Below are positions 3,315 to 30,301 of a stretch of DNA of 51,462 nucleotides, piece by piece. Each line of letters begins with the position of its first letter. Positions within the stretch are counted from its first letter, which is position 1. A program made the translations under genes and the position numbers. The stretch is from a virus. The stretch lies in the UHGV virus genome UHGV-0127437; one strand, given 5' to 3'. Under the pieces are notes generated by a model, which worked only from the letters and a program-made list of their open reading frames with translations, did not search any database and was not told where the DNA came from.

Positions 3315-4909
3315 GAATAACGAAGATTTTTATTGTCACTTTGACATTCATTGTTATAAGTCTGCCTTTATTTGGTCACTTCTGGACGTCAGGAGACCTG
3401 TCCGCCCATTATTATAGGCTCATATCTATAAAACATCAGTTGGAAACACATCAGTTTCCGATGTATTTCGATTTCGTAACTGATAACATGCAAGGGTATG
3501 GATATTCATGGAATTTATTTTACCCTCCACTGACAGCTTTTCTGTATACAATTATAGAGCTATTAAGCTTTAATAGCATTGATGCTGTTATACAGTTAAA
3601 AATAAGCATAGCAATAATCTCAGCAATAAATTTTTTTATTATGTATTTTTCTGTAAAGAGAATTTTCAACTCTTCACAAATTGCTTTTATCTCAGCGATA
3701 CTATCCGTTACATCATACTATTTTCTATACAATCAATACACTCGCTCTGCATTTCCTGAAGCTCTTGCTATGAGCTTTGTACCCTTGTTACTTTTGGGGC
3801 TATTTGGGTACATCAACAACAATAAAAATAAAATTTATTTACCATTGTCGTTTTCGTTAATACTGTTAACAAATATACCCGCAACCATTGTCACTCTTAT
3901 ATTTATAACTTTATTTGTAGTAATCTTTCATAAGAAATTCATAGAACAATATCGAGATGTAATTTTACATTCATTTATAGTTATTGGTATAACGTCATTT
4001 TTTATACTTCCGCTTTATTACACATCTAAAGGTGACATTTACGCCTTTACATCTATGAAATCAAGTTATGAATCAATGTGGAAGCTAACCATACCAGTTA
4101 TTAACTTAATCATACCGACAAGAACAACGGAGTACCCTTTCAGACTTATTACACCGGGATGGGTTATAATGGGGCTAATAATAGCCTTGTTCACCATGAA
4201 AAAAAATGGTGATAAATTATCTTCCATGCTTGATGGGCACCATAAGGTGGCTATTTCAATATCTTTATTATTCATAATAATGTGCTCACAAATGTTCCCA
4301 TGGAATCACATACCAAAACAGCTTCCGGTACTTAATTTCATTCAGTTCCCCTGGCGAATGATGCTTATATCATCGCCAATCCTGTGCATTTTCGCTGCTC
4401 TAACTCTTGTCAAAATCGCCCAAGAATCCCAAGGGAAGAAAGGTTTAATTTATATTGTCATATTTTCATCAATTATTCTTTCTATGTATGCGTCAACAAG
4501 TCCATTCGATAACAAGGCGAGACTGCCATGGTATCAAGTATATCTTGATTACATGCCTAACAACATGGCGAGAAAAATAAATGAAATTAAAAAAACCAAA
4601 AAAGAACCTATAGTGTTAAGTGGAAATGGAAGTATTGTAAGCGCTAGATTAACTGGCGGCTATCCAACATATAAATATATTTGCATGGATGATTGTACAA
4701 TTCAACTTCCTGTAATTCCTTATAGAGGATATGAGGTAGAAGGAGTTAAATCTTTTTCTGAAAACAACATGGGGTTGATGCAGGTTAACGTATCAAAAGG
4801 GAGTGGGCAAATAAATTTAAAATATAATCCAATTATTATCTACATATCATACGGAATTACGTTAATCACAATAATATTGTTGTTATATTTTACAAGAAGA
4901 AAATCATGA
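3311..4909 (+). CDS. GtrC-like serotype-specific O-antigen glucosyltransferase (polytopic membrane protein)
   Basis: 532-aa very AT-rich ORF with many predicted TM segments, third gene of gtr operon, start overlaps gtrB stop; followed by strong terminator. Confidence 0.6.
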
Positions 4910-27124: not shown

Positions 27125-27161
27125 AACAAAAAACCGCCCGGAGGCGGCTATTTTATTTTTT
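27125..27161. terminator. Rho-independent terminator (bidirectional) after low-GC moron gene
   Basis: Stem ccgcc/ggcgg with cgga loop flanked by A-run (5') and T-run (3'); sits at stop codon of the 119-aa gene. Confidence 0.65.
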
Positions 27162-27512
27162 AGTAACTGTATATCGTATGGCCGTAGTCGTCATACGGCT
27201 GGCTGTGATGAATATTTTATATTTAATTTTTTCTGCATTAAAGAAATCTTTTAAGAGCTTATAGTAACGTTTAGTTATCTCTGCCCCTCTGTTTTTAATA
27301 TCTCCTTGAGTAAGCCCCTCACCTTCGTAAGTAATTTCAGCTTTTCTTTTCCCTAAGTAAACATTTTCGGGAAGCTCGTTACCATCGAAATCCTTCTTAA
27401 GTCCATTTTTTTCAAGTAGCTCGGAAACCTCACTATAGATGTTCGACTTATCACCGACCGTAATATCGAAGGTAACCATTACATAATATGAAATTGTGGC
27501 TTTTTTTGACAT
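27153..27512 (-). CDS. Hypothetical low-GC moron protein (unknown function)
   Basis: 119-aa ORF, ATG with GGAGAAA RBS, AT-rich codon usage unlike flanking phage genes, own terminator; between Rz/Rz1 and head genes. Confidence 0.5.
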   Translation of the reverse strand: MSKKATISYYVMVTFDITVGDKSNIYSEVSELLEKNGLKKDFDGNELPENVYLGKRKAEITYEGEGLTQGDIKNRGAEITKRYYKLLKDFFNAEKIKYKIFITASRMTTTAIRYTVTKK

Positions 27513-27623: not shown

Positions 27624-28193
27624 TTAATCTGCACTATTTGCGGAACTCCTGTTGTTTGAGCTTCTAACTGACTCATAAATCTTCTCGCATGTCATTCCAG
27701 CTCGGTAGCTTTCGTCAGATCGCTCAGCATAATATCGAGCCTCTTCTGCAAGGCGTCCGAGCATGTCGGCGAGCATTCCGGCGTCGACTCCGGCTGTTTT
27801 GCTTCTGACGGAAGCGGCAAGATTTGCGGTGTGCTTTGCGGCGTCCAGGCGGGTAGCGAGTTTTTTTGCTTCGGTGCGCAGCTGGTTAACAGTGGCAGAC
27901 AGGCCAGCAGCAGTGGCAGCAGATTTAGCGGCTTGTGCTTGTGCATCTTTTACAGCCTCATCACGGGCAATTATGCGCCCTTGTTCAATCCAGCGGGCGG
28001 CGGCCTGTGCGTTCACTGTCTGTGACGACTCCGCACTGTCGCGCTCTGCCCATTTTTTTTGCCAGTCCCTGTCGCTCCAGACATTTCCGGTGATAAACGC
28101 GCCAGCCACCAGAAGTAAAACGACAACGGGTTTCCACCAGGCTTTTATGCCAGCAATTAACAGCGCCGGGTTCACTGGTCTATCCCCCAGCAC
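27624..28193 (-). CDS. Rz-like i-spanin (inner membrane spanin subunit)
   Basis: ORF after endolysin with N-terminal TM ([16 protein letters not shown]) and coiled-coil Ala/Gln-rich periplasmic domain; contains embedded Rz1 ORF in alternate frame; start is GTG. Confidence 0.6.
27692..27946 (-). CDS. Rz1-like o-spanin lipoprotein (embedded in Rz)
   Basis: ATG-start ORF wholly inside Rz in another frame; signal peptide with lipobox LLTSC and proline-rich mature region. Confidence 0.55.
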
Positions 28194-28702
28194 GTAAGCG
28201 CGCTTTCCTGGTCGCGACGGGAAACCTGCCCAAAGCAGTTATTGGAGCGAATGCGGCAATCTTTTCCGCCGTCGAATATCCAACGCCTGATTTCAGCACA
28301 GGCCCCTTTGCGGTCTCCTGCGTTCAGCTTACGAAAAAATCCAGATGGCAGGCATTTACCAGAGCCGATGTTGTACGGGCAGAACGACGCGATCCCCGCT
28401 TTCTGTGGTTCTGTCAGTGGTACTTTGATATTTCGCTCTACCCAGGCCAGCGCTTTATCGCGCTCAATGGCGTTTACCTGGTCACATTTCGCCTGCGTCA
28501 GCTTCATGCCCTGCACCACCGGTTTACCATCAACCATTGTGGCGCCACGGCAAATCGTCCAGATCCCGCCACCATCTTTGTACGCTGTCAGACTGTTACC
28601 CTCTTTCTCATTCAGGAACTGATCGAGAATAACCGACGCTGGCGCACCGGCGAGAACCAGTGCCAGAACGGCGGCACTAAGTTTTGCTCTCCACCCCATC
28701 AT
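28172..28702 (-). CDS. Endolysin, phage lysozyme (GH24-like) with N-terminal SAR-type signal anchor
   Basis: 176-aa ORF; catalytic-region motifs [20 protein letters not shown]...LTQAKCDQ; weakly hydrophobic Ala/Gly-rich N-terminus; overlaps holin stop. Confidence 0.8.
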
Positions 28703-29004
28703 TCACCAGCCTTAGTAAGCGCGTCGGCAACAACACTTACAGCCGCCGGACGCTCAGCAATGGGTTTATCACTGATTCCATCCAGGTAATCGCGGATCAT
28801 GGCTGTGCGCTTCTCGTCTTCTTTACGTTTACGACGGGCATCAATTCGGCCATTTACGTAAGAGATCAGAGAAATAAGCAGGCCGACAGCACCAAAGAAC
28901 ATGTAGACCATGTCCTGTGTGGTAAAACCTAATGCTGCCGCGAGGGTTCCAACCCACGCGAAAAACTGCGTGAAAATGTTCCCTGAGTGATCGTTCATTC
29001 TCAT
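28699..29004 (-). CDS. Holin (two-TM class, possibly pinholin partner of SAR endolysin)
   Basis: 101-aa ORF with two hydrophobic helices and charged C-terminus, immediately upstream of endolysin. Confidence 0.65.
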   Translation of the reverse strand: MRMNDHSGNIFTQFFAWVGTLAAALGFTTQDMVYMFFGAVGLLISLISYVNGRIDARRKRKEDEKRTAMIRDYLDGISDKPIAERPAAVSVVADALTKAGE

Positions 29005-29100
29005 GGTCTCTTACCTCGCGTTTTTCGGAGGCTGTGTGTAAGGGAAAGGCCGCCCGGTGGATTAACGACAAAACACAGAGGAATCGTTCCGAACGGCACA

Positions 29101-29124
29101 AATAAAAAACCCGCCAGAAGCGGG
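29101..29124 (-). terminator. Hairpin terminator upstream of lysis genes (candidate Q-antiterminated late terminator)
   Basis: Stem cccgc/gcggg with U-run on minus strand; located between the ORF downstream of Q and the holin start. Confidence 0.45.
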
Positions 29125-29192
29125 AATAGAAGATAAGCGCACGGCTTTAATCGCCCACAATGCGCGGGATAATTGTCCCAAGGTAGAGGGAT

Positions 29193-29513
29193 TCAGTTTT
29201 TTGCTACCCATTCTCGCCAGCGGGCCTCTCTAATCTCAGGGCTCAGTCGCTGATCTTCAAAATGGTTTGCCAAATTTATCGAATCTGGCAGCAATGCCCA
29301 GGCGACATAGAAATCATGTGGCTCAAACTCTCCACCAGCAAATTCGTATGCACCAACATGGTAAACCTCGCCGTCTTCTTCGAGTGCCAGCACCTGAGCA
29401 ATATGCCAACCATCACAGGGGTTAAGAAGGATAACCCAACGCCCATTAAATTCTTTGGTTGGTTTTTCACTTGCGGGTCTGAAATGAAGCTGTTCGGTAA
29501 TTGGTTGCGACAT
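29193..29513 (-). CDS. Hypothetical protein between Q and holin
   Basis: ORF with ATG at 29513 and GGAG RBS; no recognisable motif. Confidence 0.45.
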   Translation of the reverse strand: MSQPITEQLHFRPASEKPTKEFNGRWVILLNPCDGWHIAQVLALEEDGEVYHVGAYEFAGGEFEPHDFYVAWALLPDSINLANHFEDQRLSPEIREARWREWVAKN

Positions 29514-29617
29514 ACTGGCTCCAGAAACGACAAAGCCCCGCACGATGGCGAGGCTTTAAGTTCGTCGACAATCAAAGCTATGGCGACAATATCAGATTTA
29601 CATGAAATATAGCCGTT

Positions 29618-30301
29618 TTAATCTACTTTTGCAATACTTTGCTCACAATTTGTCGCTTTTTGCTGCGAACGTGTTTTGGTTAATGATAGTAATGATTCCC
29701 TGTCCAGTTCAGCAAACAGTCGGAGCATACCCAACCAGTGCGCTGTAAAGGTCTTGGACCAGTTTTTATCCTCTACCCCCACCAGCGCCGCGAGATCGGC
29801 ATATTGATACTGCTCACGCCCTGCCAGCGCTGATTTCATATCCTGCGCCGCCAGCCAGATAAGCTGCCGCAGACGCTCTATTGTCTTTTTCGCCACGCGC
29901 TTCCCCCCCATTTGCTTACTGAACTGCTCCCACGCCCAGCGAGTAATGATTACCTGGTGATCCCAGCATGTGCTTTCGCTGTAATTCCAGAGCAACCAGG
30001 CTTTTTGATGCTCGTCGAGTGACATTAGCGCCCGACGCCATGAAGCAGTGGAGTATTCGACCGGCTGCACCAGCGGGATATGCGATCCTTTGGCGTGTGA
30101 TTGTTTTCCGGGGATCGGAGGGTTGTTCAGCGTTATCAGTTTTCCCGTAACTTCATCGCGTACACGCAACCTCTTGCGGGGATAAGTATTCGTATCGAAC
30201 TGCGCGTTCTCCAGCCAGGCCATTAACTGTCCCTTTGTCGCTCCGCTCAGATCTACCGTGGCCGCAATCAGTTGCTGACGAATATAGGATAAATTTTTCA
30301 C
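29618..30301 (-). CDS. Late gene antiterminator (Q-like)
   Basis: 227-aa ORF directly upstream of lysis cassette and downstream of nin-like/rusA genes, the canonical Q position; GTG start with AGGGG RBS. Confidence 0.5.
   Translation of the reverse strand: MKNLSYIRQQLIAATVDLSGATKGQLMAWLENAQFDTNTYPRKRLRVRDEVTGKLITLNNPPIPGKQSHAKGSHIPLVQPVEYSTASWRRALMSLDEHQKAWLLWNYSESTCWDHQVIITRWAWEQFSKQMGGKRVAKKTIERLRQLIWLAAQDMKSALAGREQYQYADLAALVGVEDKNWSKTFTAHWLGMLRLFAELDRESLLSLTKTRSQQKATNCEQSIAKVD

Follow-up and report, generated by a model that had tools for sequence, protein, structure and literature searches.

We found that the open reading frame (ORF) at positions 29193–29513 on the minus strand of UHGV virus genome UHGV-0127437 is a conserved gene of 106 codons, which is enclosed between two intrinsic terminators downstream of a Q antiterminator gene and upstream of the holin gene. 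The window analyzed is the whole stretch of 51,462 nucleotides. We propose that a lambdoid prophage has here a late operon under Q control, with this ORF as its first protein-coding gene. In this scheme the late promoter PR', whose −35 hexamer lies in the 3' end of a Q gene of the Q82 family, would fire constitutively. Without Q the transcript would stop at the terminator tR' as an IsrJ-type leader of about 75–80 nt; with Q the modified RNA polymerase would pass tR', the ORF and the second terminator and continue into the holin, endolysin and putative Rz genes. The ORF protein would then appear as the late lytic phase begins, at the same time as the lysis and structural proteins or slightly earlier, and would most likely act as a non-enzymatic late-phase accessory factor that binds a macromolecule of host or phage. 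Taken as a whole, a first late gene gated by Q and encoding a cytoplasmic accessory binding protein is an explanation we consider moderately probable. The regulatory layout itself is very probably correct. The assignment of the product as a binding or adaptor accessory factor acting in the cytoplasm during late lytic growth is tentative, the binding or adaptor role being largely guessed.

Q, the ORF and the lysis genes are all encoded on the minus strand, in the order Q, promoter, first hairpin, Shine-Dalgarno sequence and ORF, second hairpin, holin. The Q gene (29618–30301) matches PF06323 over the full profile (E=2.4e-118, positions 1–220 of 220) as well as phrog_304; PF06323 is the Q82 family, one among three unrelated families of Q proteins (PMC9388147). 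On the other side of the ORF follow an N15 gp53-like holin gene (28699–29004; phrog_1350, E=5.5e-24), which aligns with the first part of the N15 holin gene, an endolysin gene (28172–28702; PF00959, E=6e-25; phrog_7) and a nested ORF pair (27624–28193 and 27692–27946) regarded as putative Rz/Rz1 by position only. Directly 3' of this pair lies a 119-aa ORF on the minus strand (27153–27512) without Pfam or PHROG match; it is situated in an AT-rich patch (GC 0.35–0.38 compared to about 0.54 around it) and, judged by its sequence, looks like a horizontally acquired accessory gene.

The first-pass annotation had placed a terminator hairpin at 29101–29124 before the holin gene, and both terminator scan and folding confirmed it (29100–29124, minus strand). 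The stem CCCGCU-UCU-GGCGGG at 29124–29110 is followed by T6-A-T3 in the consensus scan, and folding yielded −9.3 kcal/mol with z = −2.85. From this terminator through to the first part of the holin gene (about 29124–28990) the DNA is 81% identical to phage N15, whose annotation gives this element as a rho-independent terminator ahead of holin gene 53. On the opposite strand a weak terminator-like hairpin of 5 pairs (29175–29192, plus strand), followed by TCAGTTTTTT, is found just beyond the stop codon of the ORF and is probably due to chance.

A late promoter directly downstream of Q had been supposed conditionally in the first-pass annotation, and a matching site is predicted there. PR' (29606–29634, minus strand) consists of a −35 hexamer TTGCAA (29634–29629), which overlaps the last Q codons, a 17-nt spacer and a −10 hexamer TATATT (29611–29606). 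It is the sole sigma-70-like site that a consensus scan detected between 28600 and 30500, the evidence for it being computational only. Both hexamers are kept in 22 distinct loci with a Q82-type gene, while the flanking bases vary. Aligning the interval from the Q stop codon to the ORF separately for each Q family, we found the conserved blocks TTGCAAAA, (T/C)ATATTT and T.TGATAT amid variable sequence in these 22 distinct Q82-type loci. T.TGATAT is at least 90% conserved across the group. In the window the motif TGATAT (29589–29594, minus strand) lies at about +9 to +14 and is a candidate sigma-dependent pause element, as its position would suit that element of the canonical Q cassette (PMC9388147). 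The Q21-type and Q-lambda-type groups show other conserved blocks and the same hairpin, U-tract and Shine-Dalgarno sequence before the ORF.

An Rfam scan assigned the RNA downstream of PR' to the isrJ family (RF01393) with a score of 69.2 bits against a gathering score of 37 (E about 1e-12). The match comprises 71 bases (29602–29532, minus strand), covers model positions 1–75 of 75 including both helices, and with the U-tract the RNA would end near 29523. IsrJ is known as a 74-nt RNA of the Salmonella Gifsy-1 prophage with mapped ends (PMC2330248), has been described as terminating at a rho-independent terminator (PMC4825925) and is strongly transcribed in lysogens in every condition tested (PMC7067206). 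RNAs of this family also occur directly 3' of a Q82-type Q gene in Enterobacter phage CobraSix and in the prophage locus L044. Since the same arrangement is seen in the window, in CobraSix and in L044, we read the IsrJ-type RNA from its sequence and position as the PR'-to-tR' leader of the Q82-type cassette; no prior statement to this effect was found in the literature searched. The homology to IsrJ lends experimental support to a transcription start near 29602 and to an end at the first hairpin when Q is absent. In CobraSix (1574–1990) the Q82 gene, the isrJ-type leader and the terminator are the same as in the window, and shortly past the start of the U-tract the similarity ends, CobraSix continuing with a basic, unrelated ORF of 80 aa and a tRNA-Arg.

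The terminator tR' (29523–29558, minus strand) is composed of a hairpin at 29558–29531, located between PR' and the start codon of the ORF, and an interrupted U-tract TTTGTCGTTTCT (29534–29523), whose first bases are shared with the foot of the stem and which runs into the Shine-Dalgarno sequence. The hairpin contains 11 pairs, 6 of them G-C, in the terminator scan, folds with −16.9 kcal/mol (z = −2.93) and is thus stronger than that of the second terminator. Because the tract that follows it, UUUGUCGUUUCU, is interrupted, tR' may leak. From the stem to the start codon there are 17 nt, and neither in these nor elsewhere between 28600 and 30500 was a promoter-like site of the ORF's own found. 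This hairpin had been overlooked in the first-pass annotation, by which the ORF would sit between the late promoter and its terminator if that promoter lay directly downstream of Q. With a first terminator at 29558–29531, 17 nt ahead of it, the ORF instead comes after a terminator, and the hairpin at 29124–29110 is the second one. Located behind leader and tR', the ORF should need Q for full expression, as we infer by analogy with the canonical Q cassette and the Salmonella IsrJ data. The earlier suggestion that it could be transcribed without antitermination is likewise not supported, given the position of tR', apart from what may leak through this terminator.

The ORF that we describe differs from that in the mechanical ORF list, where the frame of greatest length (29193–29543, 116 aa) starts with a GTG at 29543. 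This GTG falls within the hairpin 29558–29531. A Shine-Dalgarno sequence GGAG (29522–29519) is situated 5 nt 5' of the ATG at 29513, and an alignment of 43 homologues shows a near-invariant methionine at this position. The family alignment and the location of the upstream GTG inside the hairpin therefore identify ATG 29513 as the first codon and 106 aa as the correct length, in agreement with the first-pass annotation. The same annotation had seen no recognizable motif in the product. This holds for Pfam, NCBIfam and PADLOC, in which profile scans gave no match, and does not hold for PHROG, in which phrog_17248, a family without assigned function, matches the full length (E=1.2e-62, positions 1–105 of 106). 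The median dN/dS of the family is 0.11 (398 pairs), and 16 columns are invariant over 43 sequences from more than 10 genera; the ORF is a real gene, far beyond what a chance frame would show. Its GC content (0.47–0.50, neighbors 0.49–0.55) is not atypical.

A search of 5.8 billion proteins returned 82 homologous clusters at 90% identity, all labeled 'hypothetical'. The named sources include Citrobacter koseri (95% identity), Klebsiella, Raoultella, Kosakonia, Serratia, Erwinia, Pantoea, Hafnia, Xenorhabdus, Providencia, Proteus, Yersinia, Sodalis and Symbiopectobacterium; neither Escherichia nor Salmonella is among the named sources of these 82 clusters. Nor did complete E. coli genomes contain a near-identical copy of the Q-to-holin DNA (28990–29640). 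One IMG/VR contig carries an ORF 100% identical to that of the window, by which the latter would apparently be a Citrobacter koseri prophage, and the one plasmid match to the family, on a Pantoea megaplasmid, is annotated 'hypothetical'. Two protein queries against 50,697 phage records did not retrieve the family, and a role in productive lytic growth is for this reason unproven.

In the Pfam-annotated contexts of 8 homologous clusters from at least 6 named genera the gene is located between Q and the lysis genes. We then fetched 98 further loci and analyzed the position of the ORF in 86 distinct prophage loci of Enterobacterales other than E. coli. A Q gene of the Q21, Q82 or Q-lambda family was recognized upstream in 75 of them. 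The nearest recognized upstream gene is Q in 67 loci (Q21 in 30, Q82 in 27, Q-lambda in 10) and a DNA methyltransferase gene in 10, with 9 lacking an upstream assignment. Downstream, a holin or endolysin gene was recognized in 66 loci and none in the other 20, in about half of these because less than 400 nt of downstream sequence was at hand. The recurrent flanking families were Q genes, lysis genes, a few upstream nin-region or replication genes and spurious antisense ORFs; a dedicated partner gene was not among them. What had been taken for unassigned cargo thus belongs to a positionally conserved family under purifying selection.

The same comparison of Q-to-lysis intervals revealed a terminator-like hairpin ending 15–25 nt before the ORF start in 81 of the 86 loci, while 0.93 would be expected from the hairpin density of the same DNA. 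The stems differ by locus, with CCTCGC/GCGGGG, CCCGCC/GGCGGG, CCCTGCC/GGCGGGG, TGCCTGA/TCAGGCA and GGCTGCGC/GCGTGGCC among them. RNAalifold on a MAFFT alignment recovered only a 5-bp hairpin core with some compensatory changes, owing to loop-length indels, and the per-sequence scan is the stronger evidence. The hairpin before the ORF is kept even where other cargo separates it from PR': these loci usually contain two terminators, one of them 30–120 nt after Q and the other immediately 5' of the ORF. Its near-universal presence could nevertheless stem from recombination at terminators as module boundaries, instead of selection for tight gating; the point at which CobraSix departs from the window, early in the U-tract, is an example. 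Within 300 nt 3' of the ORF a terminator-like hairpin is present in 57 of 84 loci, about 25 being expected.

Several relatives contain additional elements in the interval between Q and holin. One to three tRNA genes follow the ORF in some of them, as in Stx phages and Gifsy-1 (L015, 4409–4641; L044, 3843–3914; L056, 4636–4942; L067, 3839–4066; L024, 4194–4266). A Klebsiella oxytoca prophage (L010) carries a match to the Rfam sRNA STnc100 (4397–4581, 73.8 bits) between ORF and holin. In Providencia prophages (L006–L009, L105–L107) an N6/N4 DNA methyltransferase gene shares the slot with the ORF, while in N15 (L001) a methyltransferase gene occupies it alone. As each methyltransferase or ORF unit is bounded by a terminator hairpin of its own, this suggests that terminators act as module junctions. 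In the genome of Xenorhabdus hominickii DSM 17903 (L024–L030) at least six copies of the ORF family were found on different contigs and in different prophages.

The 106-aa protein has a pI of 4.86 and a net charge of −9, and all 86 family members are acidic (pI 4.2–5.6, net charge −4 to −15). Its maximum 19-residue hydropathy of 1.1 is below the level of a transmembrane segment. From these sequence properties the product is predicted to be cytoplasmic, small and acidic. The first-pass annotation had compared the locus with a slot for Stx-like cargo; since transmembrane segment and family match are both missing, there is nothing Stx-like about the product, which in the scheme proposed here would be neither a secreted toxin nor a lysogenic-conversion factor. 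The structure prediction which that annotation had suggested was carried out with AlphaFold2 on an alignment and gave a small beta-barrel with two C-terminal helices at a pLDDT of 93.6 (strands at residues 26–31, 35–46, 49–56 and 71–74); a single-sequence run with a pLDDT of 51 was set aside in favor of this model. No significant structural neighbor of the modeled barrel was found. Some of its hits were Sm-like, and an Hfq-like RNA-binding function was rejected given that the whole family is acidic. Invariant motifs comprise FRPASE (11–16), an NPCDGWH turn (31–37) and Y69, W72-A73 and L75 within FYVAWALLP.

Pfam, NCBIfam and PADLOC contain no family for the ORF, for 43 close members or for 75 distant members, and the PDB, searched with a sequence profile, yielded no match up to E=1. 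When 1.84 billion cluster representatives were searched exhaustively with an HMM, 108 relatives were detected at E below 1e-3, some of them from Burkholderiales and metagenomes. In distant relatives (P0096, P0107, P0134, P0136, P0146) the domain is C-terminal, and their N-termini appear by eye to be coiled-coil, Cys-rich zinc-finger-like or membrane-anchor segments, an architecture suggesting a portable binding module. Acidity, small-barrel fold, portability, missing enzyme signatures and independence of Q and holin type together point to the binding or adaptor role that we tentatively propose; the invariant Asn-Pro-Cys-Asp-Gly-Trp-His turn could equally be a metal or catalytic site.

The best surviving alternative is that the gene is cargo expressed in the lysogen, which is possible but doubtful. 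The ORF would be transcribed by leak through tR' from a promoter constitutive in lysogens, the second terminator would shield the holin gene, and the product, made at a low level, would serve for instance as an exclusion or fitness factor without causing lysis. This is a version of the first-pass idea in which leak replaces position. The abundance of IsrJ in lysogens (PMC7067206) agrees with this, as does Gifsy-1, in which the homologous isrK terminator is read through by a subset of transcripts, giving a long mRNA (PMC4825925). The interrupted U-tract of tR', compared to the T6-A-T3 tract of the second terminator, and the excess of hairpins within 300 nt 3' of the ORF (57 of 84 loci) point in the same direction, and so does the restriction of the family to prophages, with no isolated phage among 50,697 records. 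Against it stand the strength of the tR' hairpin (−16.9 kcal/mol) and the discrete 74-nt RNA that its homologue yields in vivo, as well as the lack of an independent promoter between 28600 and 30500 and a GC content not distinct from that of the neighbors. In addition, we judge six or more copies in Xenorhabdus hominickii to be easier to understand as a function of each phage than as a shared benefit to the host, and the protein is devoid of the envelope-targeting features that many exclusion factors carry.

It is unlikely, yet conceivable, that the product is a dedicated late effector, for example a counter-defense or host-factor-binding protein needed at the same time as the structural proteins, under a terminator gating common to the three Q systems and with the start of the ORF mRNA perhaps coupled to leader and terminator. 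If this were true, the 'virulence sRNA' IsrJ would have originated as the leader of such a late operon, and DUF551-like portable domains would gain a new functional class with this protein.

A role in lysis timing is improbable. In this reading the product would act in the cytoplasm like an antiholin, from a gene transcribed together with the holin gene and immediately before it, with a logic comparable to that of T4 RIII and P1 LydB. The protein is indeed small and cytoplasmic, and in most loci where a downstream gene could be assigned, the ORF directly precedes the lysis cassette. But the holins that accompany the ORF belong to at least four unrelated families (Phage_holin_3_1, 2_1, 3_3 and the N15/phrog_1350 type), which makes an antiholin unlikely; the holin gene is often 1–2 kb away with tRNAs or other genes in between, and co-variation with any lysis gene was not seen in the survey of flanking families.

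Still less probable is riboregulation, by which translation of the ORF would be controlled by the IsrJ-type leader, acting either in cis or, once terminated and released, in trans. Gifsy-1 offers a precedent, as short IsrK activates translation of the read-through isrK-orf45-anrP mRNA (PMC4825925). The distance from hairpin to start codon is fixed at 17–23 nt, and the Shine-Dalgarno sequence is predicted to be mostly paired in the read-through RNA, P(unpaired) being 0.1–0.5. Its predicted partners vary by locus, however, and a conserved anti-Shine-Dalgarno segment was not found among them. Moreover, the same hairpin arrangement occurs behind all three Q-type leaders and behind methyltransferase genes, which argues against a leader-specific mechanism. 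Finally, a chance frame without a gene, favored by the missing Pfam family and by 'hypothetical' as the sole annotation, is refuted by the dN/dS of 0.11, the 16 invariant columns, the 108 cluster representatives and the pLDDT of 93.6.

In summary, slot, layout and leader family were already known, and the ORF that we propose as first late gene is an ordinary accessory gene of the late operon. What is new is modest: an uncharacterized protein family whose position is unusually strict in all three Q systems, and the reading of IsrJ as a PR' leader. The strict address after tR' and before the lysis genes, irrespective of Q type, makes the family a tractable target for learning which functions temperate phages of Klebsiella, Serratia, Citrobacter, Xenorhabdus, Providencia and related bacteria require as late transcription begins. 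Reading IsrJ as the PR'-to-tR' leader of a Q82-type cassette would also bear on how its reported virulence phenotypes are interpreted.

Among known domains DUF551 (PF04448; e.g. YfdS and Ea22 variants), a portable phage domain with no function assigned (PMC10834534, PMC4776307), resembles the product in several respects. Size is similar, and the motifs fall into the same register: WIPVSERMP...THWMPLP in DUF551 and FxPASExP (FRPASEKPT)...VAWALLP in the ORF family. Both are C-terminal domains behind variable N-termini (for DUF551, PMC10834534; for the ORF family, by eye), and the ORF family shares its acidic character with the C-terminal domains of Ea22 (PMC10834534). A Foldseek search of BFVD gave weak matches (E about 0.03) with several DUF551 proteins among the top. 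On the other hand, the NPCDGWH turn lacks a counterpart in DUF551, whose genes, in the examples considered, lie further upstream before the nin genes, in contrast to the position of the ORF family after Q. Neither PF04448 nor any other Pfam family matched in the 118 members scanned, and hhalign against a 44-sequence DUF551 alignment reached E=0.11–0.13 with a probability below 1%, in the expected register and not significant. The relationship is therefore suggestive but unproven.

With regard to gene order, the canonical Q cassette consists of the Q gene, PR', a pause element, a terminator and the late genes (PMC9388147). The window shares with the Q82-type cassette the PF06323 Q gene, the adjoining promoter, a −10-like element in the initially transcribed region and an intrinsic terminator about 50–80 nt downstream with late genes next. 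It differs in that the first gene after tR' is the 106-aa ORF instead of the holin gene, that the Shine-Dalgarno sequence of this ORF abuts the U-tract and that a second terminator precedes the holin gene.

Gifsy-1 is similar to the window from the −35 hexamer to the hairpin, promoter included, with 86% DNA identity, the same promoter elements 5' of isrJ and a two-hairpin structure ending in a terminator. The homologous Q gene of Gifsy-1 is annotated as similar to phage 82 Q. Between it and the isrJ promoter, however, a cassette is inserted which carries anrP and whose RNA region matches isrK and C4 antisense RNA, so isrJ follows anrP, with tRNA-Arg and gogA next, whereas here it comes directly after Q. 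The isrK region directly after Q in Gifsy-1 (985–1183) contains matches to the C4 antisense RNA and c4-a1b1 target families, and by its sequence the isrK-orf45-anrP unit looks like a c4-icd-ant-type cassette (P1/P7 immI type) inserted between Q and PR'/isrJ. The roles of IsrJ in invasion and effector translocation, reported for Salmonella (PMC2330248), are not transferable to the present host; Hfq association, the effect on SPI-1 translocation and a discrete RNA of about 74 nt are known from Salmonella alone.

In N15 the layout promoter, terminator, gene, terminator, holin is annotated as such, the gene being the gene 52 methyltransferase. A moron is an autonomous promoter-gene-terminator unit expressed from the prophage; the ORF has the downstream terminator of such a unit, but neither a promoter of its own nor an atypical base composition. 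The interval between Q and the lysis genes is a cargo slot, as had been stated in the first-pass annotation: it holds Stx in Stx phages, AnrP, tRNA-Arg and GogA in Gifsy-1, the gene 52 methyltransferase in N15, and tRNAs or methyltransferases in the relatives surveyed here. Typical cargo of this slot is sporadic, whereas the ORF family, without any feature of a toxin, signal peptide or enzyme, is found at one and the same position in 86 loci behind three unrelated Q families.
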